Shown: positions 3,209 to 59,672, counted from the first letter of the stretch. The stretch is 64,000 nt of DNA from an uncultured Gammaproteobacteria bacterium (GCA_964509765.1 CAZDYI010000049.1:3405-67404), one strand, 5' to 3'. The notes: generated by a model from the letters alone, not told the origin. Numbers and translations: made by a program.

Positions 3209-4347
3209 TGGCGGCGGAGGCAGCGGTCGACTCGGGAGGTGCGGGTCCTGCGGAGGAGCGGCGCACCTCGCTCACGTACTGGCAGCTCGTCCGGCGAAGG
3301 CTCGCGGCCAACCGCTATGCGATGACCGGCCTCGTGCTGGTCGTCGCGATCCTCGCGATCGGGATCTTCAACCCGTTCCTGACCCCGTACTCGCCGCTGA
3401 CGAACAACACCGACCGGCAGTACTACCCGCCGCAGGGGATCAACTGGATCTACACCGACGGCGAGTTCCACCTGCGGCCGTTCGTCTACGGCCTGACCGA
3501 GGTGATGGACCCGGTCACCTTCGAGTTCAGCCACGAGAACAACCCCGAGGAGAGGTTCCCGGTGCGGTTCTTCACCGAGGGCGACGAGTGGACCTTCCTC
3601 GGTATCGAGGGCAGCACGCGGCTGTTCGGTGTGGACACGGAGGCCGGCCACTACATGCACCTGCTCGGGACCGACAACCTCGGCCGCGACGTCTTCAGCC
3701 GGATGCTCGCGGGCACGACCATCACGCTCCTGATGGCGTTCACGGTCGTGCTGCTTTCAGCTGTGATCGGCCTTGCCGTGGGCCTGTGCGCGGGCTACTT
3801 CGCCGGGACATTCGACCTGGTCTCTCAGCGGATAACCGAGTTCATCCAGTCCTTCCCGGACCTGCCGCTGTACCTCGCGCTGCTCGCGCTGCTGCCGACG
3901 AGGGCGGACAAGACGGTGGTGTTTTTGATGTTCGCGGGCATCCTCGTCCTGCTCCGGTGGGCGCCGTTCTCGCGCGAGATCCGCGGGATGGTGTTCGCGA
4001 TCCGGGGGATGGACTACGTGCGCTCTGCGGTCGCGGTCGGCGCGAGCAGGACCCGGATCCTGGTCCGCCACATCCTGCCGAACACATTGACCCAGGTGAT
4101 CGTCTGGGTGACCTACGCCTTCCCGGAGATCATCCTGCTCGAGACCTTCCTGTCGTTCCTGGGCGTCGGCATCCAGCAGCCGCAGATCTCCTGGGGGCTG
4201 ATGCTCAACCAGATCCTCGACTTCCAGTCCTTCGGCGCTGCGCCGTGGATGATGTCGCCGGTGGTGATGATAGTCCTGTCGGTGTTCGCCTTCAACGCCT
4301 TCGGCGACGGGCTGCGCGACGCGATCGACCCCTACCACGATGTCTGA
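3208..4347 (+). CDS. ABC transporter permease (DppC/OppC-like), 379 aa
   Basis: The ATG overlaps the upstream stop (TGATG). There is an N-terminal TM, then a long loop, then a permease core. Confidence 0.85.
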   Translation: MAAEAAVDSGGAGPAEERRTSLTYWQLVRRRLAANRYAMTGLVLVVAILAIGIFNPFLTPYSPLTNNTDRQYYPPQGINWIYTDGEFHLRPFVYGLTEVMDPVTFEFSHENNPEERFPVRFFTEGDEWTFLGIEGSTRLFGVDTEAGHYMHLLGTDNLGRDVFSRMLAGTTITLLMAFTVVLLSAVIGLAVGLCAGYFAGTFDLVSQRITEFIQSFPDLPLYLALLALLPTRADKTVVFLMFAGILVLLRWAPFSREIRGMVFAIRGMDYVRSAVAVGASRTRILVRHILPNTLTQVIVWVTYAFPEIILLETFLSFLGVGIQQPQISWGLMLNQILDFQSFGAAPWMMSPVVMIVLSVFAFNAFGDGLRDAIDPYHDV

Positions 4348-6004
4348 GTCGGCGGCGGGGGGTAACGGCGCGGCGCGCCCGCTGCTAGTCGCGGAGGGCG
4401 TCGACGTCAGGTTCCCTTTGATCGACCACACCCTGCATGCGGTCAAGGGGGTGGACCTTATGATCGAGCGCGGCAAGACGACGGCCCTCGTCGGCGAGAG
4501 CGGATCGGGCAAGTCGGTCACGGCAAGGGCGATCATGCGCATGCTGCCCGAGCGCGCGCAGATCGACCCCAAGATAAGGGTCGAGCTCGCCGGCGACGAC
4601 CTGATGGCGCTCGACGAGCTCGAGATGCAGAAGGTGCGCGGCAACCGGATCACGATGATCTTCCAGGAGCCGATGACGAGCCTCAACCCGCTGTACACCA
4701 TCGGCAGCCAGATCGTCGAGGTGATCAGGGCACACCGCGACATCGACAAGAAGGAGGCGACGGCCGAGGCCCTGCAGCTGCTCAAGGAGGTGCACATCCC
4801 GCAGCCCGAGGCGCGCCTGCGGCAGTACCCCCACCAGCTGTCGGGCGGCCAGCGCCAGCGCGTGATGATCGCGATCGCGATCGCGAACAAGCCGGAGCTC
4901 CTTATCGCCGACGAGCCGACGACGGCGCTCGACGTCACCGTCCAGGCGCAGATCCTCAAGCTGATCAAGGAGCTCCAGGACAAGTACGGGATGGCGGTCC
5001 TGTTGATCACGCACAACCTGACGGTGGTCGAGCAGACCGCGGACTTCGTCTGCGTGATGCGCCACGGCGAGATAGTCGAGCGGGGGCAGACCAAGGGGAT
5101 CTTCTCGGACCCGAAGCACCCCTACACGATCCACCTCATCGAGAGCGAGCCGAGCGGCGAGCCGGACCCGCTCCCTGCGGACGCCGGCGAGATCGTCCGC
5201 GGCGACGCGATCAAGGTCCGCTACCAGCTGGTGACCGGGAGCATGTTCAACCGGAAGAAGGTCGAGCTGATGGCGGTCAACGACGTGAGCCTCGAGGTCC
5301 GCAAGGGCGAGACGCTCGGCATCGTCGGCGAGTCGGGATCGGGAAAGACCACGCTCGGGATGACGCTGATCCGCCTCAACGAGGCGACCGCCGGCGAGGT
5401 GCGCTTCTGCGGCAAGCGGATCGACGACCTGAGCCACAAGGACCTCCTGCCGTACCGGCCGCGCATGCAGGTCGTGTTCCAGGACCCGTTCTCCTCGCTC
5501 AACCCGCGGATGATCGTCCGGCAGATCATCGCCGAGGGCCTGATAGTCAACAACCTGTGCAAGACCGGCAAGGAGGTGACCGAGCGCGTGGCGCGCGCGC
5601 TGCGCGAGGTGCGCATGGAGCCGGAGATGATGGACCGCTTTCCGCACGAGTTCTCCGGCGGGCAGCGGCAGCGCATCGCGATCGCGCGGATGATCGCGAT
5701 GGACCCCGAGTTCGTTGTCCTCGACGAGCCGACCTCGGCGCTCGACCTGTCGATCCAGGCGCAGATCATCGACCTGCTCCGCGAGCTGCGGCGCAACCAC
5801 AGCCTGAGCTTCGTTTTCATCAGCCACGACCTCAAGGTGATCAAGGCGCTCTGCCACCGGGTGATGGTCATGGAGCACGGCGTGGTGGTCGAGGCCGGGC
5901 CGACCAAGGAGGTCCTCGAGAGCCCCAAGGAGGAGTACACCGCCCGCCTGGTCGAGGCGGCGTTCAAGGTCATACCCCGGGAGGAATGGGAGGAGGCCGC
6001 CTAG
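4340..6004 (+). CDS. Fused double ABC ATP-binding protein (DppD/DppF-like halves), 554 aa
   Basis: Two Walker A motifs (GESGSGKS, GESGSGKT), two LSGGQRQR signatures and two Walker B motifs (LLIADEPT, FVVLDEPT). The start overlaps the upstream gene end. Confidence 0.9.
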   Translation: MSESAAGGNGAARPLLVAEGVDVRFPLIDHTLHAVKGVDLMIERGKTTALVGESGSGKSVTARAIMRMLPERAQIDPKIRVELAGDDLMALDELEMQKVRGNRITMIFQEPMTSLNPLYTIGSQIVEVIRAHRDIDKKEATAEALQLLKEVHIPQPEARLRQYPHQLSGGQRQRVMIAIAIANKPELLIADEPTTALDVTVQAQILKLIKELQDKYGMAVLLITHNLTVVEQTADFVCVMRHGEIVERGQTKGIFSDPKHPYTIHLIESEPSGEPDPLPADAGEIVRGDAIKVRYQLVTGSMFNRKKVELMAVNDVSLEVRKGETLGIVGESGSGKTTLGMTLIRLNEATAGEVRFCGKRIDDLSHKDLLPYRPRMQVVFQDPFSSLNPRMIVRQIIAEGLIVNNLCKTGKEVTERVARALREVRMEPEMMDRFPHEFSGGQRQRIAIARMIAMDPEFVVLDEPTSALDLSIQAQIIDLLRELRRNHSLSFVFISHDLKVIKALCHRVMVMEHGVVVEAGPTKEVLESPKEEYTARLVEAAFKVIPREEWEEAA

Positions 6005-6120
6005 GCCGGGCGCCGCGTCCAATGGTCGAGGAGATCAGTAACCCCCGGGGCAGGAGTCCGGCGCCGCTGGCGGCCATGCGGATAAAATGCGGAGCAGGAC
6101 TGAACTGACGGAGGATTGAC

Positions 6121-11324: not shown

Positions 11325-12386
11325 ATGGGAGCGATCAGGCTGGAAGCCGTGGAGAAGTGGTTCGGGAACCTGCAGGTGATCAAGGGCATCGACCTCGAGT
11401 TCTCCGACGGCGAGTTCGTGGTCCTGGTCGGGCCGTCCGGGTGCGGCAAGACCACCCTGTTGCGGATGATCGCGGGGCTCGAGGAGACGAGCAGGGGGAA
11501 GATCCTCATCGACGGCAGCGACGTCACCGACCGCGTTCCGTCCGAGCGCGAGCTGTCGATGGTCTTCCAGTCGTACGCGCTCTACCCGCACATGTCTGTC
11601 GGCGAGAACATGGGCTTCGGCCTCAAGACCGCGGGCGTGCCCAAGGGCGAGATCGACGGGAAGGTCGGAAAGGCGGCAGCGGTGCTCAAGCTCGACGCGC
11701 TGCTCGAGCGCAGGCCCAAGGCCCTGTCTGGCGGACAGCGCCAGCGCGTCGCGATCGGCAGGGCGATCGTCCGCGAGCCGAAGGCGTTCCTGTTCGACGA
11801 GCCGCTGTCGAACCTCGACGCCGCCCTGCGGGTGGAGATGAGGCTCGAGATAGCGCGGCTCCACCAGCAGCTCGGCACGACGATGGTCTACGTCACCCAC
11901 GACCAGGTCGAGGCGATGACGCTCGCCGACAAGATCGTGCTCCTCGAGGGCGGGGTGGTCAAGCAGGTCGGCACGCCGCGCGAGCTCTACGAGAGCCCGC
12001 AGAACGAGTTCGTCGCTGGCTTCATCGGCAGCCCGAAGATGAACTTCGTCCTGTGCTCGGTCGAAGGCAGCAGGTTCGAGATCCCCGGCCAGCCCGGCGG
12101 CGAGCACAGCCTTGCTCAGCCGCCGGCCGGGATAGCCCGCCTCGGCATCAGGCCCGAGCACATCGCGCTGACCGACGGCGACGACGCGCACTGCAGGGGC
12201 GTCGCCGAGGTGGTGGAGTACCTCGGGGCCGAGTCCTACGTTTTCGTAAAGAGCGACGGCCTTCCGGAGATGACCGTCCGGGTCGCCGACTTCGACATGT
12301 CAAGGGAAGGGTCGGACATCGGCCTGCGCTTCGACTGCGCGCGGATTCATTTCTTCAACGAATCCGGAGATGTTGTAGGGCAGTGA
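11325..12386 (+). CDS. Sugar ABC ATP-binding protein (MalK/UgpC/MsiK type), 353 aa
   Basis: Walker A GPSGCGKTT, signature LSGGQRQRVAIGRA, Walker B FLFDEPLSNLD, and a C-terminal regulatory/TOBE-like domain. Confidence 0.9.
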   Translation: MGAIRLEAVEKWFGNLQVIKGIDLEFSDGEFVVLVGPSGCGKTTLLRMIAGLEETSRGKILIDGSDVTDRVPSERELSMVFQSYALYPHMSVGENMGFGLKTAGVPKGEIDGKVGKAAAVLKLDALLERRPKALSGGQRQRVAIGRAIVREPKAFLFDEPLSNLDAALRVEMRLEIARLHQQLGTTMVYVTHDQVEAMTLADKIVLLEGGVVKQVGTPRELYESPQNEFVAGFIGSPKMNFVLCSVEGSRFEIPGQPGGEHSLAQPPAGIARLGIRPEHIALTDGDDAHCRGVAEVVEYLGAESYVFVKSDGLPEMTVRVADFDMSREGSDIGLRFDCARIHFFNESGDVVGQ

Positions 12387-12391
12387 AAAAT

Positions 12392-13924
12392 TCACATTAG
12401 TTTCAGCTGACCATTGTCATCGGTCGAAGTTTGCTGTATGTCTGTCCGTGTCGAGGCATGCACTTCGTTGACTTTGTCGTGTCCGGGTTTCCACAAGCGG
12501 GAATAAACACCCTTGGAATACACCTCCATCCCCAACAGCAAGCAGTACTGTGCCACAGGCAGAAACGTTGCTTTACCTGATTCGTCAAGGTTGGCTGGAT
12601 AGGTGCTTCTTGTCGTGCAGTACATTCCGTCTAAGTGCTTCTTGTTGTTGATCACGGATGAGAAGTGCGACAGATTCTTGGCAGCCTCCTTCAGTGTTGA
12701 TTGCTTGTCGCTCCATTTGACTTCTGTTATCCTGGTAATCAAGTCGGAAAACTTGTACCGGTGAATCATGTCGATCTCGTACAGCTTTTCTCCCCTCTTG
12801 AAGGAAAGAAAATGTATTTCATCAGTCAAGGGCGGCAGGGTTTGCGTGTAGACTGTTGCCTCGACGATGTGACCCGCGCGGTCTTCGTTCGGGTCCAGAG
12901 GTCCGAACAGCGAGGTGTGGTGTGCCGTGTTTTCCAGCAAGTACTTGTGCTTGAAGTCCCTTTGGAGCCTTTCAAGCTCGTTGCCTGCGCGTGGCACGGA
13001 TCGGACCAGAAAAGAGTCCTTCAGGTATTCCATGTAGGTGTCGACGGTGGGGAACTGCACACCCGAAGCCTTTGCCATGCCTTCCTTGGACAGCTCCTGG
13101 CCGTCGTGCCTTGCTATGTACTTGTACAGCAGTTCAAGGGCCCGGGTTTTCCTCAGTTCGTAGTGCATCGGTATCTCGCGGACGGCGGCCCTCTGGATTG
13201 TGTCCGCGTATACCTCTTCGACGTCTGTTTCGCTGTAGCCTGTTCCCAGCAGCTCAACGAACGAGCCGAAGTTCATGTAGTCCAGGAAATTGTCATTGAG
13301 CTCCTCGATCTGTTCGCGGCCAAGCCGGTGCCGCCTCAGGGAGTCAGGCTCCCTGGGCAACCCGTCCGGCCACTTCCCCCTAGCGTCAAGGTACTCGAAG
13401 AACATCAGCGGAGGGGCGTACAGGTCGCGCACCCGTCCGTGCCCGGTTTCCAGGTGCTTCGGGTTCAACACAACTGACACCGAGCCGGACGCAACGAAGG
13501 TTGTGTCCTTTTCGTGGTCGGTAAGCGTCTTCAGATGGTGGGGCCAGTCCTCGGCGAACTGAATCTCATCGAAGATCACGAGCTTGTCGCCGTCCCCAAC
13601 GGCCGGAAGGCCCTTGAAGGCTTCGAGGATTTCGGTCAGGCTCGGCGAGCTCGGACTCAGCTTCTGCAAGTCCACGAAGCAGACATGCCGGCGCTCGATC
13701 AGTTTTGCCTCGAGGACGCGGCCGAGGAATTGCTTGAGGACGACGGTCTTCCCCACCCTGCGCTGGCCGTACAGGACAACGGTTCTCCTCGGAACCTTTT
13801 TCAGCGCCAGGCTTCCTAGCGGGTTGATGATCCTGCGCTCGAATCCGAAACTGGATTCTTCCGGCAGGACCTCGCTGCCCCACCAGGGATTTTGCTTGGC
13901 AATGGCGTCCTGCAACTCGGTCAT
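12392..13924 (-). CDS. AAA+ ATPase / wHTH / PD-(D/E)xK nuclease-like protein (COG1373; AAA_14 + DUF4143), paralog P1, ~510 aa
   Basis: NPWW motif, Walker A GQRRVGKT and Walker B LVIFDEIQ. The C-terminal triad is IVEAT...YEIDMI...TEVKWSD. Start chosen at ATG 13924 (MTELQDAIAKQNPWW). Composition is visibly AT-richer than the flanking operons. Confidence 0.8.
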   Translation of the reverse strand: MTELQDAIAKQNPWWGSEVLPEESSFGFERRIINPLGSLALKKVPRRTVVLYGQRRVGKTVVLKQFLGRVLEAKLIERRHVCFVDLQKLSPSSPSLTEILEAFKGLPAVGDGDKLVIFDEIQFAEDWPHHLKTLTDHEKDTTFVASGSVSVVLNPKHLETGHGRVRDLYAPPLMFFEYLDARGKWPDGLPREPDSLRRHRLGREQIEELNDNFLDYMNFGSFVELLGTGYSETDVEEVYADTIQRAAVREIPMHYELRKTRALELLYKYIARHDGQELSKEGMAKASGVQFPTVDTYMEYLKDSFLVRSVPRAGNELERLQRDFKHKYLLENTAHHTSLFGPLDPNEDRAGHIVEATVYTQTLPPLTDEIHFLSFKRGEKLYEIDMIHRYKFSDLITRITEVKWSDKQSTLKEAAKNLSHFSSVINNKKHLDGMYCTTRSTYPANLDESGKATFLPVAQYCLLLGMEVYSKGVYSRLWKPGHDKVNEVHASTRTDIQQTSTDDNGQLKLM

Positions 13925-13931
13925 GGGAACA

Positions 13932-13960
13932 AGTATAACATTAATTGAAGTATAAATCAA
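13932..13960 (-). promoter_or_regulatory. Putative leaderless promoter of P1 (TTGATT-N17-TATACT)
   Basis: On the minus strand, TTGATT (13960-13955), a 17-nt spacer, then TATACT (13937-13932). The -10 ends exactly 7 nt before ATG 13924 and there is no Shine-Dalgarno. Confidence 0.5.
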
Positions 13961-13969
13961 TTACCGTGT

Positions 13970-13988
13970 GATATGTCGTAACCAATTG
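13970..13988 (-). promoter_or_regulatory. Conserved distal motif CAATTGGTTACGACATATC upstream of P1
   Basis: A near-identical motif (CAATTGGTTGCGAATATC) sits at 29065-29048 upstream of P4. In both cases it ends exactly 45 nt from the start codon. Confidence 0.5.
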
Positions 13989-14237
13989 TATATTCATGAA
14001 TAATCAATAATCCTACAACAATTGATTTGTATTTCAATTATCGTTTTCATGCATGTATCTTATTGATATCATTCATTAAAATAGTCAATGAAAACTATGT
14101 GCATATGTTAACAAAAGAGGGTGATGCATGGGAAGGTCAGGTAAAGAGCAAGTGTTGACGGAACATGGAATCGTGATTGCAAGGAAGAATTTTGGATGGA
14201 CCCGTGGAGGAGTTGGCGGATGCCGGAGAGGAGGCGG

Positions 14238-15692
14238 CTACAGGACATTCCACTGTTCGCAATACACATCGTCATTGCTGAAAATTTCCATTCCCAGCAG
14301 CAGGCAGTACTGCGCCGTCGGCATGAACCGGACGCGGCCTGTGTCGTCAAGGTCGTCGGGGTAGGTGGACTTGGTCGTGCAATAGCAACCGTCAAGCCGC
14401 TTGCCATGCTTGCCCTTTATTTTTATTTCGAAATGGACAAGATTTTCTGCGGCTGCACGCAGATTGGCTCTGTGATCGCTCCACTTGACTTCCGTGAGCC
14501 TGGTGACCTCCTCGCTCCTGCCGAAGCGGTGGACCATGTCTATTTCGTATTTCTTGTCACCCCTCTCGTAGAGTGCGTAGTTGATTTCGTTTTCTGCAGG
14601 AGGAAGGGTTTGCGTGAACACTGTTGCCTCGACTATGTGCCCGAACTCAGGTTGACTTGAAGGCGGATTGCCGTGCAGGAGTGAACTGTGTGAGGCGTGC
14701 TCCAGCATGTATTTCGTTCCTGCGTCGATCTGCAGCCGTTTCAGCTTGTTGCTGGAGCGATGCACTGTTCGAACAAGAAACGCCTCGCACAGGTAATTCA
14801 GATAGGAACCTACCGTCTCCTTGTCCAATCCCGAAACCATGGCGATGTCGTTTTTCTTCAGTTCCCGGCCGTTGTGTTGGGCAATGTGCCTGAACATTGT
14901 TTCCAGCCCGTCAATTTTTGTGATTCCATAGTGCAGCGGGATGTCCCGGATTATGGCCCTGTCAACCGCGTCTCTTCTCACCCTCCTGATTGCTTCCGGA
15001 GTGTAGCCGTGCTCGAGCAATTCCAGGAATGCGCCGTGTTTGACGTACTCAAGGAAACTGTCGTTCAGCGATTCGATGGCTGGGTCGTCCAGGCGATGAT
15101 CCCGCAACCCATCTGGGTCGCGCGGCAAGCCAGTTGGCCATTTGCCATTTGCCAACAAGTATTCGCAGAATAAAAAAGGAGGCACATACATGTCAAGAAA
15201 GCGCCCGTAGCCGGATTCCCTGTGTTTTGGATGCAGCACAGCCGAGACGGATCCGGAGACAACTAAGGCTGTGTCCTTTTCATGATCGGTCATGGTCTTG
15301 ATTTGGATTGGCCAGTCACTCGCAAACTGAATTTCGTCGAAGACCAACAGTTTCCTTCCCTCGCCGACAGAAGGCAGCTTCTTGAAGGCGCGGACAATGT
15401 CCTTGAGGATGCGTCCGCTGGTGAAGACCGCACCGAGGTCAACATAGCATGCGTGCTCCCGCTTGACGAGATTGTTCTCAATCGCCAGGCCAAGCATTTG
15501 CTTGAGCATGACTGTTTTTCCGGCCCGGCGCTGGCCGAACACCAGCAAGGACCTCCTCGGACCGTCGGAGAAAACATTGGCTCCGACTGGATGAAGGAAC
15601 ATCCGCTGGTAGTCGAGGCCGGTTTCCTCAGGCAGCTCGTTGCCTTCCCACCACGGGTTTTGGTTGACTAGATTGGACTGAAGCTCATCCAT
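14238..15692 (-). CDS. AAA+ ATPase / wHTH / PD-(D/E)xK nuclease-like protein (COG1373 type), paralog P2, ~484 aa
   Basis: NPWW, Walker A GQRRAGKT, Walker B LLVFDEIQ, IVEAT...YEIDMV...TEVKWSD. About half the N-terminal residues are identical to P1 by eye. Start chosen at ATG 15692 (MDELQSNLVNQNPWW); ATG 15704 is an alternative. Confidence 0.8.
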   Translation of the reverse strand: MDELQSNLVNQNPWWEGNELPEETGLDYQRMFLHPVGANVFSDGPRRSLLVFGQRRAGKTVMLKQMLGLAIENNLVKREHACYVDLGAVFTSGRILKDIVRAFKKLPSVGEGRKLLVFDEIQFASDWPIQIKTMTDHEKDTALVVSGSVSAVLHPKHRESGYGRFLDMYVPPFLFCEYLLANGKWPTGLPRDPDGLRDHRLDDPAIESLNDSFLEYVKHGAFLELLEHGYTPEAIRRVRRDAVDRAIIRDIPLHYGITKIDGLETMFRHIAQHNGRELKKNDIAMVSGLDKETVGSYLNYLCEAFLVRTVHRSSNKLKRLQIDAGTKYMLEHASHSSLLHGNPPSSQPEFGHIVEATVFTQTLPPAENEINYALYERGDKKYEIDMVHRFGRSEEVTRLTEVKWSDHRANLRAAAENLVHFEIKIKGKHGKRLDGCYCTTKSTYPDDLDDTGRVRFMPTAQYCLLLGMEIFSNDDVYCEQWNVL

Positions 15693-15719
15693 AGGAACCG
15701 GCATCAGTATAACACATAA

Positions 15720-15737
15720 AAGCGGATGCATCCGCTT
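15720..15737. promoter_or_regulatory. 18-bp perfect palindrome AAGCGGATGCATCCGCTT upstream of P2
   Basis: Perfect dyad. It lies 8 nt upstream of a TATACT -10-like box (15711-15706, minus strand), so it covers the -35 position of the P2 promoter. Confidence 0.45.
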
Positions 15738-15836
15738 CTTTGTTATGTTTGTTGCAACTGTCTGTATTCATTGTTAAATTTCCTGATACTCACGAAGATG
15801 CGGATTAATCCGCTTCTCCGTTCATTGTTTTGCAAC
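15722..15836. repeat. Two copies of a ~37-bp hairpin-containing module, 78 bp apart
   Basis: Copy 1 is 15722-15758 (GCGGATGCATCCGCTTCTTTGTTATGTTTGTTGCAAC). Copy 2 is 15800-15836 (GCGGATTAATCCGCTTCTCCGTTCATTGTTTTGCAAC). They match at 28 of 37 positions. The 11-mer CTCACGAAGAT also occurs twice (15789-15799, 15862-15872). Confidence 0.6.
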
Positions 15837-16034
15837 ACATTGAAAAGATGGCAAAAAAACGCTCACGAAGATTATGTGAATATGTTGACTTTCACCGTCC
15901 GAAGCCGGCGTTTCTCGTTGGGTTCAGCCAGTCCTGCGAGCACATGACGCTCACTTGTAGATCCGTTCGGAGCGAGGGAAAATATAATCGGCAAGAGGCG
16001 AGGAGCGGACAGCGGAAACTAGTGGAGGCTGGCA

Positions 16035-18170
16035 GTGGCATCTGAAAAATCAACTTCGGGCGCGGTCTACACCTGCCCGATGCACCCGGAGGTCAAGCAG
16101 GACAGGCCCGGCGACTGCCCCAAGTGCGGGATGGCCCTGGAGTCCGCCGGGGTTCCGGGCGAAGAGAGCCTGGAGGAGCTGCGGGACTTCACCCGCCGCT
16201 TCGCGGTCAGCGCCGCCCTTGCGATCCCGCTGCTTGCGGTCTCGATGGGCCCGCTGCTCGGCCTGCCTCTGCGGGAGTGGCTCGGCGAGAGGGCCGCGGT
16301 CTGGACGGAGCTCGCCCTCGCGACCCCGGTCGTCCTCTGGGCCGGCTGGCCGTTCTTCGTACGCGGCGTCCGCTCGGTCGCCAACCTCAGCCCGAACATG
16401 TTCACCCTGATCATGATCGGCGTCGGGGCGGCCTACGGCTACAGCGTGGTCGCGACCGTCGCGCCCGGGCTGTTCCCGGAGGGCTTCCGCATGGAGGGCG
16501 GGGCAGTCGGCGTCTACTACGAGGCCGCAGCCGTGATCATCGCCCTGGTCCTGCTCGGGCAGGTGCTCGAGCTGCGCGCGCGCAGCAGGACCGGCGACGC
16601 GATCCGCGCGCTGCTCGACCTGTCCCCGGAGACCGCGCGCGTCGTCCGGGACGGGGCCGAGGAGGTCGTCCCGCTCGAGCAGGTGAAGGTCGGCGACGTC
16701 CTCAGCGTCCTGCCCGGGGAGAAGGTCCCGGTGGACGGGATCGTCACAGGCGGGGTGTCGTCGGTCGACGAATCGATGATCACCGGCGAGCCGCTGCCGG
16801 TCGAGAAGGCCCGGGGCGACAGGGTGGTCGGCGCGACGATCAACGGCCAGGGCAACCTGACCGTCGAGGCGAGCCAGGTCGGCTCGGACACGGTGCTCTC
16901 GCGGATCGTCGAGATGGTCTCCCGCGCGCGCGGCAGCCGCGCACCCATACAGGCGATGGCCGACCGCTTCGCGGCCCTGTTCGTTCCCGCGGTGCTGCTC
17001 GTTGCGGCGGCTTCCTTCGTCGTCTGGTCCCTGGTCGGGCCGGAGCCGCCCGTGACGCACGGGCTGGTCGTCGCGGTGTCGGTGCTGATCATCGCCTGTC
17101 CCTGCGCCCTCGGGCTTGCCGCGCCGATGTCGGTGATGGTCGCCGCCGGGCGCGGGGCCGAGGCCGCGGTGCTCGTCCGCGACGCGGAGTCGCTCGAGCG
17201 CCTTGCGTCGGTGGACACCCTGGTGATTGACAAGACCGGTACCCTGACCGCGGGAAAGCCGAAGGTCGTGTCCGTTGCCGCGGCCGAGGGCAGGGGCGAG
17301 GATGAGGTCTTGGGGCTCGCGGCGAGGCTGGCTTTCGGCTCGGCGCACCCGCTGTCCCAGGCGATCGCGAGGGCCGCGAGGGAGCGCGGGCTTGAGGTCT
17401 CCGTCGGAGTCGAGACGGTCTCGCATGCCGGGATGGGCGTGACCGGAACGGTTGACGGCGCTGAGGTCGCGCTCGGCAACGAGAGGCTGCTGGACAAGGT
17501 CGGCGCCGGCGAACACGGCTTCGGCGCCCGCGCCGAGGAGAGCAGGGGCTCGGGCGAGACCGCGCTGTTCGTTGCGTCCGGCGGCGAGGTGGTCGGCATG
17601 ATGGGCCTGGCCGACGAGGTCAGGGACGACGCCCCGGAGACGCTAAGGAGGCTGAGGGAGCAGGGGCTGCGCATCGTCATGGCGACCGGCGACAGCGCCC
17701 GCACCGCCGAGGCGGTTGCGAAGGGCCTCGGGATCGAGGAGATTCATCCCGAGGTGATGCCCGAGGACAAGGCGGCGCTGGTCAGGAGCCTGCAGGGGCA
17801 GGGCGGCAAGGTAGCGATGGCGGGCGACGGCATAAACGACGCGCCGGCCCTGGCCCAGGCCGACGTCGGGATCGCGATGGGCTCCGGCTCGGACGTCGCG
17901 ATCGAAAGCGCCGGCATCACCCTGATGGGCGGCGACCTCAAGGGCATCGTCCGGGCGAGGAACCTCGCGGTCGCGACCGTCTCGAACATCCGCCAGAACC
18001 TCCTGTTCGCCTTCGGCTACAACTCGCTCGGGGTGCCTGTTGCGGCGGGCGTCCTGTACCCGCTGATCGGGGTGTTCCTCTCGCCGATGATCGCGGCCGC
18101 GGCGATGAGCCTGTCGTCGGTCTCGGTCGTCTGGAACGCGCTCCGCCTCAAGGGGGTGTCCCTGGACTGA
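16035..18170 (+). CDS. copA: Cu(I)-translocating P1B-type ATPase, 711 aa
   Basis: GGAGG lies 6 nt upstream of the GTG. Motifs: TM4 CPC (IIACPCALG), [17 protein letters not shown]5 YN (GYNSLG) and TM6 MSLSS. The N-terminus has [24 protein letters not shown] and no GMTCxxC HMA domain. Confidence 0.9.
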
Positions 18171-18180
18171 GGGCCTCCGG

Positions 18181-18849
18181 TCAGTCGGCCGCGTGAAGAA
18201 GCTCCTCGCCGTCGTTCCTCGGGTTGTTGACCCGGGTCGAGACCGCGTGCCACGCAAGCGCGCGGTCGTCGGGCGAGGCGGCGGCCCCTTCAATCCGGTC
18301 CGCGTCGGCGCCGGGGTCCAGCCACTCCCTTGCTGCCTGCGGGGCGAGCGCGAGCGGCATCCTTCCGTGGATGTGCCCGATCTCGGGCCTGGCCTTCGTC
18401 GTCACGATTGCGAAGGTGGGCACTGCCCCCTCCGCCGCAGGCGCGGCATGCAGTCCTGCAAGAAGCATCGGCCTGCCGCACTCAAGGCCGATGCTCATCG
18501 GAACCTTCCCGCCGCCTTCCCGGACCTGCCACTCGTAGTAGCTGTCAACCGGGACGATGCACCGCGAGCCCTTCCAGGCTCCCTTGAAGTAACCCTTTGT
18601 AGGGGCAGTCTCGACCCTGGCGTTGATCGGGGTCGGCATCCCTTCCTTGGCCCAGGCCGGCCGGAAGCCCCAGGCCATCAGCATCGGCGCGGGTCCTCCG
18701 CCGCCGTCCGCCGCAACCCAGGCATCCTTGCTCGGGGCGACGTTCCATGACGGCTCGCGCTTCGGGAGGGAAGCCGACGGGTCCCAGCGCCCGAGCCAGT
18801 CCTCCAGCAGCTCCTGCGGATTGCTGAACTGGGCGAACCTTCCGCACAT
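18181..18849 (-). CDS. SOS response-associated peptidase (SRAP/YedK/DUF159), 222 aa
   Basis: N-terminal MCGRF (catalytic Cys2) and the HGRMPL motif. Size fits the family. Confidence 0.85.
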   Translation of the reverse strand: MCGRFAQFSNPQELLEDWLGRWDPSASLPKREPSWNVAPSKDAWVAADGGGGPAPMLMAWGFRPAWAKEGMPTPINARVETAPTKGYFKGAWKGSRCIVPVDSYYEWQVREGGGKVPMSIGLECGRPMLLAGLHAAPAAEGAVPTFAIVTTKARPEIGHIHGRMPLALAPQAAREWLDPGADADRIEGAAASPDDRALAWHAVSTRVNNPRNDGEELLHAAD

Positions 18850-27106: not shown

Positions 27107-27451
27107 TCAGCAGCAGTCCTCCTCGCGCTTGGGAACGACGCCGTAGTCGAAGTCGTCGTTGACGACGGCCATCAGGTTCCGCGCGGCGTAGTCGAGGACG
27201 TCGAGCCAGACGAGCGCGTCGAACTTCTCGTTGACCGAGATGGTTTCCGACATGTCGCGCTTCGCGAGCTTGCCGTTGACCGTCTTGAGGACGTCGTTGA
27301 TGTCCTTGCGGAGCCGCTCCCTCTGGGCGTCCCCCAGCGTGTCGATCCGCTCGGTGGCGATGCTCCGCCTCGGCCCGCGCGTTGCGATGGCCCCGAGCGC
27401 CTCCTCGCGGCGGGCGAGGACCCGTTCCTGCTTGCCGTCGTCCGTGTTCAT
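27107..27451 (-). CDS. Hypothetical 114-aa charged protein co-oriented immediately upstream of P3
   Basis: GAGGAG lies 10 nt upstream of ATG 27451 and third positions are G/C-rich. It has no His residues and ends in EEDCC. I recognise no family. Confidence 0.6.
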   Translation of the reverse strand: MNTDDGKQERVLARREEALGAIATRGPRRSIATERIDTLGDAQRERLRKDINDVLKTVNGKLAKRDMSETISVNEKFDALVWLDVLDYAARNLMAVVNDDFDYGVVPKREEDCC

Positions 27452-27571: not shown

Positions 27572-29002
27572 TCATGTAGTTTTTTCCATGGATTCGAGTC
27601 CCAGCGACACGCTGAACTGCGAGGTGGGCAGGAAGGTCACCTCCTTCTTGCGGTCCTCTCCGTAGGCCGTCTTTGTGGTGCAGAAGCAGCCGTCGAAGGA
27701 CTTGGCCTTCTTCTTCCTGCTCCTGACGTGCGCCAGGCTGTCGGCGGACTTGGCATGGCGGTCCCTCTTGTCGCTCCACTTGATTTCGCAGAGCCTGTGG
27801 AGGTAGGCGGCGCCCCTCGGCGTGACAACCATGTCAACCTCCCTGTCAATCCCGTCGCGCCTGTACCTGCAGTAGAACACCTTTTTTCCTGTGACGCTCG
27901 AGGCCGCGAAGCAGTTGTGGTACTGAGTGAGCGCCGCCGCCTCGATGGCGTGTCCCGCATCGTCGTCGTCAATGGAGACCGGGTTGTTGTACAGGCCGTG
28001 CATGTTGGGATTGACCAGGTGGTACTTGCGCGCCGAGTCCTTCTGCAATGCCCGCAGGGCCGACCCGAGCTTGGGCACTTTCCTGATCAGCAGGCATGCC
28101 TCGAGGTACTTCAGGTACTTCTTGATGGTCTCGGGCTCCATTCCCGTCTGCTTCTCGATCGAGTCGATCGAGACCTCCTGGCAGTTGTGTCCGGCAACGT
28201 GCTCGAATATAGTCTCAAGCCCCTCAGCGTCGGTCACCCCGTACAGCTGCGGCAGGGTGCTGAACAGGTCCTTGTCCGGCATGTGCTGCTCATGGTATTC
28301 CCGACGGCCCCTGGCGATCTCGGGATGCAGCACCAGCGCGGGAAACGCGCCGTAGTTGATGTAGTCGATGAAGTCCTCGTTGAGCGAGTTGACCTCCTCC
28401 CGGCCGAGCCTGGCGGACCTGGCCTGCGCGGCGGTTCTCGGCAGGCCGTCCGGCCACTTGCCGGAAAAGTCCAGGTACTCGCAAAACAGAAGTGGCGGCA
28501 GGAAGAACCTGTAGAACCTGCCGGTTCCCGCCTCGGCGCTCTTGCGCTTGAGCTCCGACAGGGCCGATCCGGTGACCGCAAGGCTGATGCCCTTCTCGCG
28601 GTCGGTCAGGTCCTTGACCTCCCGCTCCCAGTCAAGCCGGAACTGGATCTCGTCGAGCACGAACAGCGCCGGCCTGCCCGGGTCCGCAACGGCCTTGAAC
28701 TGCTCCACAAGCGCCGACGGGGAATGCTTGCCCAGCAACGAGTTCTGGTACGACGCGAAGCACACGTTCCTCGGGCTGAACCTGCCGGACGAGATGGCCT
28801 GCCCGACCAGCTGCATGAGCATCACGGTCTTGCCCACCCTCCTCGGCCCGTGCAGCACGGCAGTGAAGGGCAGCTTCGGGTCCAGGGCGATCCGCTCCAC
28901 CTGGGGGTAAAGCATTCTCTTGTGCTCGAACGAGTGCTCCTCGGGGAGGATGTCCGCGTCCCACCAGGGATTGGTGATCCTCAGTATGTCGATGATGCCC
29001 AC
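27572..29002 (-). CDS. AAA+ ATPase / wHTH / PD-(D/E)xK nuclease-like protein (COG1373 type), paralog P4, ~476 aa
   Basis: NPWW, Walker A GPRRVGKT, Walker B LFVLDEIQ, AIEAA...REVDMV...CEIKWSD. Start chosen at GTG 29002 (VGIIDILRITNPWW). Confidence 0.8.
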   Translation of the reverse strand: MGIIDILRITNPWWDADILPEEHSFEHKRMLYPQVERIALDPKLPFTAVLHGPRRVGKTVMLMQLVGQAISSGRFSPRNVCFASYQNSLLGKHSPSALVEQFKAVADPGRPALFVLDEIQFRLDWEREVKDLTDREKGISLAVTGSALSELKRKSAEAGTGRFYRFFLPPLLFCEYLDFSGKWPDGLPRTAAQARSARLGREEVNSLNEDFIDYINYGAFPALVLHPEIARGRREYHEQHMPDKDLFSTLPQLYGVTDAEGLETIFEHVAGHNCQEVSIDSIEKQTGMEPETIKKYLKYLEACLLIRKVPKLGSALRALQKDSARKYHLVNPNMHGLYNNPVSIDDDDAGHAIEAAALTQYHNCFAASSVTGKKVFYCRYRRDGIDREVDMVVTPRGAAYLHRLCEIKWSDKRDRHAKSADSLAHVRSRKKKAKSFDGCFCTTKTAYGEDRKKEVTFLPTSQFSVSLGLESMEKTT

Positions 29003-29065: not shown

Positions 29066-29208
29066 ATAAAGCAAAGTAATTTACAATATCTGCTGACCAA
29101 TCGGCATCGTTCCGCCTTGTTGGATGATTTTTTACAACTCATTGATATGCTGAATTTAATTATGTCCGACCCGCCGCAACCTACGAACAGGGGCCGCACG
29201 GGGCTGTC

Positions 29209-40599: not shown

Positions 40600-40734
40600 G
40601 CTGCGCTCATGCCGGCCGTCGTTTCGCAGCCAAGGGGCTGCGGCCGGACGGGTCATTCTACTTTTCGCCCGCGCTCGTGGCCGCCGCCGGCGTGGGAAAA
40701 TCCGCCTTTTCACGCCGCGACCACACCCCTCGAG

Positions 40735-41397
40735 ATGCCGGGCATCGCAGAACTCTGGCGCAGCTTCATGCCGCGCGTCCTGCGCAGGGACGAGCGCGAG
40801 CCGGTCGACGGCGTCGACTCGCTCGAGCGGTTCGTTTCGACCCGCGCGGCCTACGTCGCGCAAAAGAGCCTGTACGGCTACCTCAAGACCAGGATGGGCG
40901 TGCAGTTCCCGCAGATGTTCGAGGACGACCGCTTCGGGGAGTCGATCAACATCGCCAAGCGGAACGTCTTCGAAGCGTGCCTGTCCGACCTCGCGGTCCA
41001 TGCCGTCGCCGTGGCGACCGAGGGCTCGGGCTTGTCCGACTCGCAAAGGCGGGCCCTGGCCGCAGGCTGCCACGAGAGGGGCCTTGCCGACAACGGCCTC
41101 GAGGAGTCGGAGCGCTTCTCGCCCGAGGCGGCCCGGGCCTCGTTCGCGGCGAGGCTGTCGGCGTCGGACTGGCGGGGCAGGGCTCTCGGCCGCGACGAGT
41201 TCGAGCGCAGCCCCGAGGCGCTCGTGAGGTGGGCGCCGATCGTCAAGGAGCACAAGGACCTCGACGCCGAGTTCGTCATGAACTCGATGCGGTACGCGTG
41301 GATCGACGTCCGCAGGACCTTCCGGCGCAAGATCGACCGCGCCGCGGTGGCGGCCGACGCGCAGGCGCGCGGCAGGGAGGCGGGGGAGGAAACGTGA
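40735..41397 (+). CDS. Hypothetical protein, 220 aa, translationally coupled to the exonuclease-CBS-DUF294 gene
   Basis: ATG 40735. The stop overlaps the downstream GTG (GTGA). Third positions are G/C-rich. I recognise no family. Confidence 0.55.
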   Translation: MPGIAELWRSFMPRVLRRDEREPVDGVDSLERFVSTRAAYVAQKSLYGYLKTRMGVQFPQMFEDDRFGESINIAKRNVFEACLSDLAVHAVAVATEGSGLSDSQRRALAAGCHERGLADNGLEESERFSPEAARASFAARLSASDWRGRALGRDEFERSPEALVRWAPIVKEHKDLDAEFVMNSMRYAWIDVRRTFRRKIDRAAVAADAQARGREAGEET

Positions 41398-43505
41398 CCT
41401 TCCCGAAGTCGGACGTCGACCTCTCGGGGATGCCGCTGTCTTCCCTGCGCGCCGTCGTCCTCGACACCGAGACCACCGGCCTCGACGTCGCCAAGGACAG
41501 GGTCGTCGAGATCGGCGCGACGCGCATCGCCGAAGGCAGGGTCGACGCCGACGGCGGCTTCACCCAGCTCGTCAACCCCGGGGTGCCGATCCCCGAGCTC
41601 TCCCGCGAGGTCCACGGCCTGACCGACGCCGACGTCGCCGGAGCGCCGGCGTTCCCGGAGGCGATGGGGAGGTTCGTCGCCGAGATGGGTCCCGTCGTCG
41701 TCCTCGGCTACTCGCTCGGCTTCGACATGGGAGTGCTCAAGGCCGAGCACGACCGGCACGGGATGATCTGGAGGGCGCCGCGCACGGTCGACGTCGCGCA
41801 CGCGGTCCGGGTGATCAACCCGCAGCTCCCGAACCACTCGCTCGACGTGGTCGCGCAGTGGCTCGGCGTCGCGATCGAGGGCCGGCACCGTGCGATGGCG
41901 GACGCGCGGGCGACGGCCGAGGTCTACCTGCGCCTCCTGCCGCTGCTGCGCGAGCGCGGGATCGAGAACCTCGCTCAGCTCGAGCGCCGCGTGCGGGAGC
42001 ACGCACACCGGCTCGGCGAGGAGGAGGGCATGGGCTGGGTCGGCCCGGCGTCGGTCGACGACGAGGCGGTCTACGCCGGCATCGCACGCCTCGACAGCTT
42101 CCCGTACCGCCACCGCGTGGGCGACATCATGTACAAGCCGAAGTACGTCGACGTCCGCAGCACGCTGTCCGAGGTCATGCACCTGATGGACGAGCTCAAG
42201 ACCAGCTCGATCTTCGTAGCCGACGGCAAGAGGCCCGTGGGGATAGTCACCGAGCGCGACGTGCTGCGGACGATAAAGGACCGCGGCGCGGACGCCCTGC
42301 GCGGCGACCTGTCGTTCGCGGTGCGGGACTCGCTGTTCTCGGTCGCAGAGGACGAATTCGTCTACCGCGCGCTGCTGCTGATGGACAGGGAGCGGGTCCG
42401 CCACCTCGCGGTGCTCGACGCAGCCGGCGAGATCGTCGGGGTGGTCACCACCCGCAGCATGCTGCGGGTGCGCGCGGAGGACGCGATCATGCTCGGCGAA
42501 CGGATCGAGGCGGCCGAGAGCGTCGACGAGCTCGGCAGGGTCTGGGGCGAGCTAGTCCCGGTCGTGCACACCCTCCGGGTCGAGGAGGTCGACGCGCGCG
42601 ACATCGCCGGCGTGATCTCCCGGGAGCTGCGCGCGCTGACCAGGCGCGCGTGCGAGATTGCCGAGCGGGAGATGCTCGACGAAGGCCTCGGCCCGCCGCC
42701 TGCAGACTACGCGATGATGGTCCTCGGCTCCGGCGGCCGGGGCGAGAGCCTGCTCGCGATGGACCAGGACAACGCGATCGTCCACGAGGCCGGCGACGAC
42801 CCTGACAGGACGGCGGAGTGGATGGCCGAGCTCGGGGGGAGGGTGTCGGGGATGCTCGGCAGGGCGGGGCTGGCGCTGTGCAAGGGCGGCGTGATGGCCT
42901 CGAGCGCCGAGTGGCGGATGGACCTCGAAAGCTGGCTGCGCAAGGTCGACTCCTGGGTCGCGCGCGCGGGCCCCGAGGACTTCCTCAGCAGCGACATCTT
43001 CTTCGACGGGGTCTGGGTGCACGGCAGGCGCGAGCTCGCAGACGGGCTCCTTGCCAAGGCGCGCGCAAAGGTCGGCGCGTCGGCGAACTTCATCCGGTAC
43101 CTGTCGCTCAACGCGAGCAGGTTCGACAGCGCGGTCGGCGTGTTCGGCAAGGTCCGGACCAGGGGCGGCAGGGTCGACCTCAAGCTGCGCGGCGTGCTGC
43201 CGGTCTTCAGCGCGGCCCGGGCGGTGGCGCTGCGCCACGGCGTCGCCGAGAGGTCGACCGCGGGCCGGCTGCGCAAGTGCGTCGAGCTCGGCCACGCCGA
43301 GGGCCGGGTCGCGGACGGCCTGCTCGAGGCGCAGCGCGTCATGATGGGGCTCATCCTCTCGCAGCAGCTGCGGGACATCAAGGACGGGATAGCCATGGGC
43401 ACGGGGGTCGACGTCGGGGCCCTGTCGAGCAGGGACAAGGACAGCCTGGAGTGGGCGCTGTCGAAGGTCCCCGACATCAGCGACCTGCTCGGGACGCCGG
43501 TGTGA
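41394..43505 (+). CDS. DEDDh 3'-5' exonuclease / CBS pair / DUF294 nucleotidyltransferase fusion protein, 703 aa
   Basis: GGGGGAGGA lies upstream of GTG 41394. Exo motifs are VLDTETTG, GYSLGFDMGVL and HRAMADA. Two CBS modules follow. The NTase motif is GSGGRGESLLAMDQDNAIV, followed by a DUF294_C-like tail. Confidence 0.75.
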   Translation: MTFPKSDVDLSGMPLSSLRAVVLDTETTGLDVAKDRVVEIGATRIAEGRVDADGGFTQLVNPGVPIPELSREVHGLTDADVAGAPAFPEAMGRFVAEMGPVVVLGYSLGFDMGVLKAEHDRHGMIWRAPRTVDVAHAVRVINPQLPNHSLDVVAQWLGVAIEGRHRAMADARATAEVYLRLLPLLRERGIENLAQLERRVREHAHRLGEEEGMGWVGPASVDDEAVYAGIARLDSFPYRHRVGDIMYKPKYVDVRSTLSEVMHLMDELKTSSIFVADGKRPVGIVTERDVLRTIKDRGADALRGDLSFAVRDSLFSVAEDEFVYRALLLMDRERVRHLAVLDAAGEIVGVVTTRSMLRVRAEDAIMLGERIEAAESVDELGRVWGELVPVVHTLRVEEVDARDIAGVISRELRALTRRACEIAEREMLDEGLGPPPADYAMMVLGSGGRGESLLAMDQDNAIVHEAGDDPDRTAEWMAELGGRVSGMLGRAGLALCKGGVMASSAEWRMDLESWLRKVDSWVARAGPEDFLSSDIFFDGVWVHGRRELADGLLAKARAKVGASANFIRYLSLNASRFDSAVGVFGKVRTRGGRVDLKLRGVLPVFSAARAVALRHGVAERSTAGRLRKCVELGHAEGRVADGLLEAQRVMMGLILSQQLRDIKDGIAMGTGVDVGALSSRDKDSLEWALSKVPDISDLLGTPV

Positions 43506-56234: not shown

Positions 56235-56288
56235 CCGCACCCGGCAGGCCCGTGCTTCATGCTGGAGCGCCGGCCGCGGCGGCCGGGT

Positions 56289-56361
56289 GAACAGAGGCGG
56301 GATTCGAACCCGCGACCTCCCGCTTAAAAGGCGAGAACTCTGACCCCTGAGCTACTCTGTT
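56289..56361 (-). tRNA. tRNA-Lys (anticodon UUU), 73 nt, CCA not encoded
   Basis: Hand-folded cloverleaf: AACAGAG-TA-GCTC-AGGGGTCA-GAGT-T-CTCGC-CTTTTAA-GCGGG-AGGTC-GCGGG-TTCGAAT-CCCGC-CTCTGTT-C. Confidence 0.85.
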
Positions 56362-56461
56362 CGGCTTTGATTATGGCATGCTCCGGGCGCGCCGCGCGCA
56401 TGATGTCCCCTGCGTCCGGCGGCATGCGCCCGTCGCTGACAGAGGCGCAGAAATCCGGTTT

Positions 56462-56581: not shown

Positions 56582-59478
<2,897 letters not shown>

Positions 59479-59546: not shown

Positions 59547-59557
59547 TTCGTTTCGGC

Positions 59558-59672
59558 TTGGCGGCCAAGGCGAGGTGGTACCACCCCTTCCCATCCCGAA
59601 CAGGACCGTGAAACGCCTCAGCGCCGATGGTAGTGCAGGATCAGCCTGTGTGAGAGTAGGTCGCCGCCAAGC
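59558..59672 (+). rRNA. rrf: 5S ribosomal RNA
   Basis: TTGGCGGCC...CCCATCCCGAACAGGACCGTGAAAC...CGCCGATGGTAGTG...GAGAGTAGGTCGCCGCCAAGC. Confidence 0.95.

Follow-up and report, generated by a model that had tools for sequence, protein, structure and literature searches.

DUF4143 (COG1373) is listed as a member of the PD-(D/E)xK superfamily with unknown function (PMC3424549). Proteins in which an ATPase is fused to such a PD-(D/E)xK domain appear in the PADLOC database as PDC-S01, one of 145 untested candidates that were derived from genes lying within established defence systems (bioRxiv 10.1101/2024.01.29.577857). PDC-S01 has been ranked fourth in abundance among prokaryotic ‘defences’, with experimental validation said to be pending for most candidates of this sort (PMC12988326); in rumen genomes it was the single locus found most often (PMC13356809). 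In Thermus thermophilus, an AAA_14/DUF4143 gene was up 6.6-fold after plasmid transformation (PMC4406477). Here we analyse five genes of this kind (P1 to P5) in a stretch of 64,000 nucleotides (nt) from an uncultured Gammaproteobacteria bacterium (GCA_964509765.1 CAZDYI010000049.1:3405-67404), referred to as the window, and in particular the tandem pair P1 and P2 located between an msiK-like gene and a copA gene. P1 and P2 are members of the known, very common AAA_14-DUF4143 family (COG1373; PDC-S01) and do not represent a new kind of system. The block that they form is a long-lived variable slot, in which each of the related genomes has one AT-rich gene or two, all from a single clade. Taken jointly, the identity of the proteins, their architecture and the variable slot are, in our judgement, almost certain.

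The block contains two head-to-tail open reading frames (ORFs) on the minus strand (12392-13960 and 14238-15731) and no further ORF. Alignments of homologues, together with the NCBI-derived entries P0004 and P0001 matched by P1 and P2, respectively, place the likely starts at 13924 and 15692. With these starts P1 (12392-13924) encodes 510 amino acids (aa) and P2 (14238-15692) encodes 484 aa, both with AAA_14 and DUF4143 domains; the alternative starts are a TTG at 13960 for P1 and an upstream ATG at 15731 for P2, the latter giving 497 aa. The two proteins are 51% identical over 480 aa (BLASTP, 513 bits), in agreement with a first-pass annotation of the sequence in which a head-to-tail minus-strand pair was judged by eye to share about half of its N-terminal residues. 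This identity and a synonymous divergence (dS) of 1.8 rule out P1 as a recent tandem duplicate of P2. An AT-rich spacer with 37% GC (13925-14237) separates the two genes. To the left, a gene for a MsiK/UgpC-like ATP-binding cassette (ABC) ATPase (11325-12386, plus strand; ABC_tran/TOBE_2 matches) is the last in an operon of ABC permeases and an MGH1-like glycoside hydrolase. Its stop at 12386 and the P1 stop codon at 12392-12394 leave a gap of 5 nt, the distance given in the first annotation. To the right, an AT-rich region upstream of P2 (15693-15950) is followed by the gene for a copA-type P-type ATPase (16035-18170, plus strand), recognized as an ORF and by homology.

The msiK-copA junction was compared in two further contigs: L001, a Logan contig (SRR23238410) from a close relative, and L083, a contig of SRR11247072 from a far more distant one. 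In L001 CopA has 99% protein identity to its counterpart in the window, copA is 97.5% identical and msiK 96% identical at the nucleotide level (96.1% in its last 489 nt). There, msiK is followed by 511 nt of non-coding sequence, by one P2 orthologue, and then by copA and an SRAP gene. L001 has no P1 and no detectable remnant of it; positions 14020-14109 of the P1/P2 spacer have 75% identity with part of the L001 spacer, and the AT-rich region upstream of P2 is conserved. A synteny comparison had been proposed earlier as a check for presence/absence polymorphism, and such polymorphism is what we found: P1 is missing in L001 between flanks that are 96-97.5% identical. In L083 protein identity to the window is lower (74% for CopA, 72% for MsiK and 56% for SRAP) and the flanking dS is ~1. 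L083 carries one AAA_14-DUF4143 gene, X83, at the msiK-copA junction, with its stop 16 nt from the msiK stop. X83 has 44% identity to P1 and to P2, and its G+C content at third codon positions (GC3) is 0.54 versus 0.80 for the copA gene of the same contig.

With the L001 orthologue as the reference for divergence, P2 consists of two very different parts. Codons 1-200 (15095-15692), which cover the N-terminus and the AAA+ core, have 98.3% nucleotide identity and dS of 0.053; the flanking genes have dS of 0.084 (copA) and 0.12 (msiK). In codons 201-477, encoding the lid, the winged helix and the nuclease, identity is 78.9% and dS is 0.85, a 16-fold rise at codon 200. This divergent 3′ 60% of P2 (lid/helical region, winged helix and nuclease; 14261-15095, minus strand) extends to the point where homology between the window and L001 ends, at 14261, 21 nt before the P2 stop; homology resumes exactly at the msiK stop codon. 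A recombination breakpoint is located near 15095, within P2. Because dS leaps at codon 200 of P2 and P1 is absent from L001, we conclude that recombination has exchanged the stretch between the msiK stop and codon ~200 of P2 (~12387-15095), which holds P1 and the spacer along with the 3′ 60% of P2. Gene conversion from P1 was considered as the source of the divergent half of the L001 gene and rejected, as its nuclease-domain identity to P1 is 53%, versus 56% for P2. The P2 protein of the window is without a C-terminal tail of ~15-30 residues, ending in QLKL(M/V), that is common to P1 and the L001 allele.

The ratio of non-synonymous to synonymous divergence (dN/dS) between P2 and its L001 orthologue is 0.21 over the full length, the two halves taken separately giving 0.12 and 0.16. 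These values show selection for function, and purifying selection acts on either half of P2; P1 and P2 are both intact, selected genes. What had been called an island is better termed a variable slot of long standing, with exchange of modules within a gene, and this is the most useful new point of the analysis. As a separate observation, the SRAP gene next to copA (18181-18849 in the window, 288-956 in L001) has dS of 0.30, against 0.08 for copA; recombination mosaicism around the slot may extend beyond it, to the SRAP gene.

The window holds three more copies. P3 (25653-27077, minus strand, 474 aa) and P4 (27572-29002, minus strand, 476 aa from GTG at 29002 or 500 aa from TTG at 29074) belong to the same subfamily as P1 and P2, while P5 (59885-61159, plus strand, 424 aa, AAA_14 and DUF4143) belongs to another PDC-S01 subgroup and is without the NPWW motif described below. 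P5 starts 213 nt past the 5S rRNA gene and its upstream region is AT-rich (43% GC). In BLASTP comparisons P4 is 35-36% identical to P1 and P2, P3 is 31% identical to P1 and P2, and P3 and P4 are 37% identical to each other; P5 aligns weakly, with P3 alone, across the N-terminal ~100 aa, i.e. the ATPase region. P1 to P4 (474-510 aa) are longer than P5, as had been stated, by 50-86 aa rather than by the ~60-90 aa of the earlier estimate.

All five proteins score above the Pfam gathering thresholds for AAA_14 (PF13173, 27 bits) and DUF4143 (PF13635, 28.1 bits), the profile check that had been suggested for them. AAA_14 scores are 81.7 bits for P1, 74.6 for P2 and 71.6-79.5 for P3 to P5; DUF4143 scores are 48.4, 56.3, 37.8, 50.2 and 94.6 bits for P1 to P5, respectively. 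All five also match PADLOC models of PDC-S01, a single-gene system, with E-values from 1e-28 to 5e-87. The best model is PDLC04787 for P1 to P4 (E 5.5e-36 for P1 and 7.4e-40 for P2) and PDLC04790 for P5 (E 4.9e-87). NCBIfam has no model for P1 to P5. In the Pfam scan the ATPase_2 match to P1 was weak and sub-threshold, both P1 and P2 being below the ATPase_2 cut-off, and neither protein had a Cdc6 or ORC match. A profile search of 1.84 billion cluster representatives returned 20,731 relatives at E <= 1e-3, of which 2,220 had E <= 1e-30; one homologue bears a PF03008 annotation. Among 5.8 billion proteins the closest match to P2 outside sister strains has 39% identity, and no relative of the clade of P1, P2 and X83 exceeds this value, sister-strain orthologues aside; a scan of genome contigs yielded no relative above ~32% identity.

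Conservation of motifs was judged on an alignment of 29 subfamily sequences, with residues numbered as in P2. Every motif listed in the first-pass annotation is present in P1 to P4 and conserved over the 29 sequences: NPWW, Walker A GxR(R/K)xGKT, Walker B DEIQ, the E / ExD / ExKW(S)D residues and TTK(S/T)...F(L/M)P. NPWW is nearly invariant. On the ATPase side the invariant residues are G53, R55, G58, K59, T60, D119, E120, Q122, W127, S148 and R164; on the nuclease side they are E355, E383, D385, E401, K403, W404 and P458. The Walker A and B motifs and the E / ExD / ExK residues are intact in both P1 and P2.

The composition of the block is clearly different from that of its surroundings. GC content is 0.46-0.60 over 12400-15900 versus 0.67-0.75 outside; it drops from ~0.69 to ~0.50 at 12300-12400 and rises again between 15900 and 16100, and two intergenic stretches reach ~0.30-0.39 (in 200-nt intervals). 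GC3 is 0.735 in P1 and 0.661 in P2 versus 0.91-0.93 in the hydrolase, msiK and copA genes. The block is, therefore, AT-richer, as described earlier; the accompanying statement that third positions are no longer dominated by G/C overstates the difference, since they are still ~70% G/C. The other copies have GC3 of 0.75 (P5), 0.87 (P4) and 0.94 (P3), so that the composition of the paralogues ranges from clearly foreign to fully host-like; the fully ameliorated P3 has kept all motifs. P1 itself is uneven, with GC3 of 0.81 in codons 1-200 and 0.69 in the remainder, and with GC (in 200-nt intervals) of 0.60-0.65 towards the 5′ end versus 0.46-0.51 towards the 3′ end. P1 could itself be mosaic, its ATPase half being older and its C-terminal half younger. 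Another low-GC stretch of the window, at 56-60 kb, was considered as a second island and proved to be the 23S and 5S rRNA genes.

The comparisons above bear on the age of the slot. Because the same-clade gene X83 occupies the junction in L083 while the nearest non-sister match has only 39% identity, the occupancy must be long: the same clade has long been resident at the msiK-copA junction without adopting host composition. The persistent AT-richness suggests that alleles have been replaced repeatedly from an AT-richer pool, or that composition is under selection, rather than one recent landing. A single landing is disfavoured because the flanking dS to L083 is already ~1 and because P3 shows that full amelioration is possible. 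The horizontal acquisition proposed at first pass is, thus, too simple: the foreign composition stands, a recent island does not, given X83 at this junction in L083.

The 29-sequence alignment was used to model P2 with AlphaFold2, and the resulting model is confident (pLDDT of 86.5 and pTM of 0.89). The best PDB matches of the whole chain are the Orc1/Cdc6-DNA complexes 2qby_A (E 4.5e-9) and then 2v1u, and further fold matches include Apaf-1, CED-4, ORC4, RFC and RuvB. By sequence, no solved structure of the family was found in PDB; the sequence-profile search gave a weak P-loop match alone (ORC4, E 5e-4 over ~64 residues). According to the model, an AAA+ core is followed by a helical lid and then by a winged helix in the first ~335 residues of P2, which is the arrangement of archaeal Orc1/Cdc6. 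The N-terminus before the ATPase is short and bears NPWW. The hallmarks of AAA+ proteins were all observed, namely Walker A and Walker B, an arginine preceding strand 5, and a helical lid after the alpha/beta core; by its position just before strand 5, we infer R164 to be the arginine finger.

The last 147 residues of P2, modelled alone (pLDDT 85), show an alpha-beta-beta-beta-alpha-beta core with a further strand and helix. Foldseek matches of this domain are the nuclease domains of Can2 and Card1, then NucC, VC1899 and XisH; type II restriction enzymes Bse634I, EcoO109I and SgrAI are matched as well. Both the catalytic motif and the core topology of the PD-(D/E)xK superfamily are found in P2, and the C-terminal domain of P1 and P2 is accordingly predicted to be a PD-(D/E)xK nuclease with residues E355, E383-x-D385 and E401-x-K403. 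The winged-helix and PD-(D/E)xK folds, which structure prediction had been proposed to verify, were both recovered, together with the AAA+ fold. The CTTK...F(L/M)P motif corresponds to strands four and five of the modelled nuclease domain and lies past the end of the Pfam DUF4143 model, which spans P2 residues 262-417. TTK(S/T)...P is conserved throughout the widespread ~480-aa subfamily, beyond this genome. The C-terminal CTT(K/R) motif, initially taken to be specific to the subfamily of P1 to P4, is an ordinary, widespread part of the nuclease fold. A C-terminal repeat sensor (TPR- or WD40-like) is not present in the P2 model, which ends at the nuclease domain.

Compared with PDC-S01, P1 to P5 share the single-gene build of an ATPase and a PD-(D/E)xK domain and differ in nothing fundamental; P1 to P4 fall into the ~480-aa subgroup with N-terminal NPWW, and P5 into another. 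P2 resembles Orc1/Cdc6 proteins (2qby, 2v1u, 1fnn) in the order of AAA+ core, helical lid and winged helix; unlike them, it adds a C-terminal nuclease and the NPWW N-terminus, so that the likeness is one of fold only. Membership in Orc1/Cdc6, i.e. P2 as a replication initiator, was rejected: the gene is accessory and multi-copy, P1 is dispensable in L001 and Pfam gives no Cdc6/ORC match. The best structural matches of the C-terminal domain, Can2 and Card1 (CRISPR ancillary nucleases) and NucC (CBASS), have the acidic/ExK arrangement in common with it. These enzymes are activated by cyclic oligonucleotides via CARF or allosteric pockets, whereas the P2 nuclease shares its polypeptide with an AAA+ ATPase and a winged helix, and P1/P2 have no signalling partner nearby. 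Type IV restriction of the McrBC kind also combines an AAA+ motor with a PD-(D/E)xK nuclease acting on DNA, and its genes are often solitary and compositionally foreign. McrBC is, however, a two-subunit GTPase system with a dedicated reader of modified bases, while P1 and P2 are each one polypeptide with a winged helix and give no sign of dependence on DNA modification. The core of NTPase, helical and winged-helix domains in STAND NTPases (Avs/Apaf-1/CED-4) gives a significant fold match to P2, and some Avs proteins carry PD-(D/E)xK effector domains; the C-terminal repeat sensor belongs to STAND/Avs proteins, while P1 and P2 end after the nuclease at 484-510 aa. A parallel fusion of an AAA+ ATPase with a domain of the PD-(D/E)xK superfamily is known in ATPase_2 + DUF234 proteins (COG1672; PMC3424549), with Pfam families different from those of P1/P2.

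Promoter-like sites were identified close to the starts of several of these genes. In the spacer, the site upstream of P1 consists of TTGATT and TATACT separated by 17 nt, with TG upstream. The extended -10 element TGTTATACT is found before P1 (13932-13940) and before P2 (15706-15714), where the -10 ends 7 nt before the ATG start codon of P1 and 13 nt before the start codon of P2; P4 has an extended -10 element, TGTATAAT, just upstream of 29002. Because the extended -10 elements sit only ~7-13 nt before the start codons, the P1, P2 and P4 mRNAs are predicted to be leaderless or near-leaderless. The spacer also contains a 26-nt inverted repeat (13937-13962 / 14020-14045). Upstream of P2 there is a 46-nt direct repeat, 72% identical between copies (15713-15758 / 15791-15836), and each copy has one palindrome with GCGGAT half-sites: AAGCGGATGCATCCGCTT (15720-15737) and GCGGATTAATCCGC (15799-15812). 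Both palindromes are conserved in L001 as well. The AAGCGGATGCATCCGCTT palindrome, located over the predicted -35 position of P2, is a candidate operator. No upstream motif was common to the subfamily genes of other genomes, AT-richness being the sole shared feature.

No integrase, transposase, tRNA gene or flanking direct repeat was found near P1/P2, and the block does not qualify as a mobile island. A 15-nt inverted pair (12390-12404 / 15867-15881) was considered as the ends of a mobile element; it is no better than 14 chance pairs, and its left arm is P1 coding sequence. The neighbours of P1/P2 (the MGH1-like hydrolase, the ABC transporter, CopA and SRAP) are not those of a defence island. 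The window as a whole is dominated by uptake systems and by sugar and organic-acid metabolism, with ORF matches to ABC permease families (10), ABC ATPase families (5) and solute-binding families (5) of Pfam. Other PADLOC matches in the window were rejected as defence genes; they are cross-matches to a duplicated ABC ATPase (4340-6004) and to a DEDDh exonuclease domain (40677-43505). The latter ORF, of 942 aa, has a DEDDh (RNase T-like) domain and matches the PADLOC DEDDh and PDC-S48 models. A DUF294 match in the Pfam scan of the window may belong to this ORF because L002 (ENA ERZ25070769 contig_6, 141 kb) carries an RNase_T-CBS-DUF294 protein. The product is probably a housekeeping nucleotidyltransferase/exonuclease fusion rather than a defence protein.

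Among subfamily homologues in other genomes, the GC3 of the gene was well below that of its neighbours in 7 of 11 cases. In 80 metagenomic loci with an orthologous MGH1-like hydrolase (986 kb), where the hydrolase relatives all have <=54% identity, no homologue of P1 to P5 was found; the genes are for this reason placed outside the hydrolase operon. No relative of P2 was present in 50,697 phage records, PHROG gave no match, and only three of 72,556 plasmid records matched P2. The P1/P2 type appears from these searches to be a host-side chromosomal gene.

Several further observations were made at related loci. L002 has several copies of the same subfamily (P0005, P0010 and an AAA_14 fragment), at sites 262-561 and 4608-6098, amid TctABC, Dak/PTS and sugar ABC genes; the window is, thus, not alone in carrying several copies among transport genes. 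In a gammaproteobacterial metagenome-assembled chromosome (L008, 2797-8629), the subfamily gene adjoins a 6-kb block of low-GC3 ORFs (0.30-0.42 vs ~0.75-0.84), a foreign island larger than the single-gene islets elsewhere. Between P4 and P3 there is a GC-rich ORF of 113-114 aa (27113-27451, minus strand), also called as a gene in two independent Logan contigs, L164 and L165; it has no Pfam or PHROG match and might be a partner of the P4/P3 pair. Upstream of P5, the window contains a complete 23S rRNA gene (56582-59478) and a 5S gene (59557-59672), with no 16S gene in the 56 kb upstream, and a tRNA-Lys gene on the minus (opposite) strand just before the 23S gene (56286-56362). The rRNA genes look unlinked. 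The 23S gene is at most ~81% identical to plasmid- or chromid-borne 23S genes, and because of this low identity the organism is assigned to a poorly sampled lineage; the best named CopA matches are from Alphaproteobacteria (~60-64% identity).

As to function, our preferred reading, held tentatively, is that P1 and P2 are ATP-dependent DNA-sensing nucleases acting against foreign DNA, mechanism and defence role being taken as one reading. ATP-bound protomers would assemble on DNA via the winged helix and the AAA+ interface, and the assembly would license the fused nuclease to cut DNA. The swapped C-terminal module (lid, winged helix and nuclease) would set recognition, and the set of paralogues would serve as a repertoire against incoming foreign DNA. 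The genes would, thus, be solitary restriction-like or defence nucleases, apart from the neighbouring transport operons. A number of points weigh against this reading. A PDC-S01 representative expressed in E. coli B failed to protect against T4, T5 or T7; of the eight candidates in that phage assay four were protective, and PDC-S01 was not one of them (bioRxiv 10.1101/2024.09.26.614923). In the literature searched we found no functional study of the AAA_14/DUF4143/COG1373 family, as the first-pass annotation had supposed in stating that the family has no demonstrated function. The same annotation took the family to be counted among defence candidates, and so it is, as PDC-S01 of PADLOC (PMC12988326); the defence label, however, rests only on the embedding argument of PADLOC. 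No recognized defence gene was detected by PADLOC beside any of P1 to P5 in the window. At the 11 other loci the neighbours are mostly housekeeping genes (ATP synthase, cytochrome c1, ALAD), with only a type III restriction enzyme, as two neighbouring ORFs, standing out. The match of the C-terminal domain to nuclease folds is moderate (E 3e-3, TM-score ~0.5), and assembly on DNA is inferred with fold resemblance as its sole basis. A defence-island context was, thus, found neither in the window nor around the 11 homologues elsewhere. The self-contained module of the earlier proposal is supported in its architecture of ATPase, DNA-binding and nuclease domains.

A more specific version, which we consider unlikely, makes the msiK-copA junction a long-lived diversification slot for an immune-receptor-like nuclease, with the ATPase kept, the C-terminal module swapped and paralogues gained and lost. 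The swapped module would presumably set the target, extra paralogues such as P1 would come and go beside P2, and the tandem copies could act as a cassette reservoir or as hetero-oligomer partners in the style of Orc1/Cdc6. The same segment replacement, with its sharp breakpoints at the msiK stop and inside P2, could also be the mark of a selfish, self-maintaining nuclease gene, addictive or homing-like, that spreads via flanking homology with no benefit to the host. Single-gene AT-rich islets among housekeeping genes in 7 of the 11 other genomes, the lack of defence neighbours and the negative phage test of the PDC-S01 representative (bioRxiv 10.1101/2024.09.26.614923) would all be in line with such a gene. 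The locus, however, has no integrase, transposase, tRNA target or terminal repeat that we could find; the family is absent from the phage records searched and nearly absent from plasmids, purifying selection acts over the whole protein, and the old, fully ameliorated P3 is still intact. We also know of no homing endonuclease that has an AAA+ motor. On balance, selfish spread seems improbable.

The fold of P2 allows for a cellular role as well: an Orc1/Cdc6-like factor of DNA transactions or regulation, maybe tied to sugar-transport operons, whose nuclease-like domain would help to bind or process DNA. In its favour are the structural matches, the best of which are origin-bound Orc1/Cdc6 proteins, the palindromes over the P2 promoter, the position of both tandem pairs beside genes of MalK/MsiK type, and the conservation of the slot in the distant relative L083. 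Adjacency to such genes, however, is expected by chance in a window with five ABC ATPase and ten permease genes, and the 80 orthologous-hydrolase loci have no homologue. P1 is dispensable in the close relative L001, the catalytic residues of the nuclease are invariant across the family and the composition is foreign; a cellular factor of this type appears distinctly unlikely. Finally, P1 and P2 could be decaying remnants of an old insertion with no present function, as low GC, poor codon adaptation and the loss from P2 of the ~15-30-residue tail of P1 and the L001 orthologue might suggest. Full-length reading frames with all catalytic motifs intact, dN/dS of 0.12-0.21 and a promoter-like site for each gene make decay very improbable.

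PDC-S01 is reported among the most abundant candidate defence families of bacteria and archaea, and the present locus leaves what is known of its function unchanged. What the locus gives are natural experiments for functional work: five paralogues of differing age within 64 kb, and the presence or absence of P1 between near-identical strains. The pair of P2 alleles, with 98% identity in the ATPase half and 79% in the DNA-binding/nuclease half, could be used to map specificity if an activity is found. If the junction is indeed a diversification slot, it would provide the first evolutionary handle on the specificity-determining part of PDC-S01.

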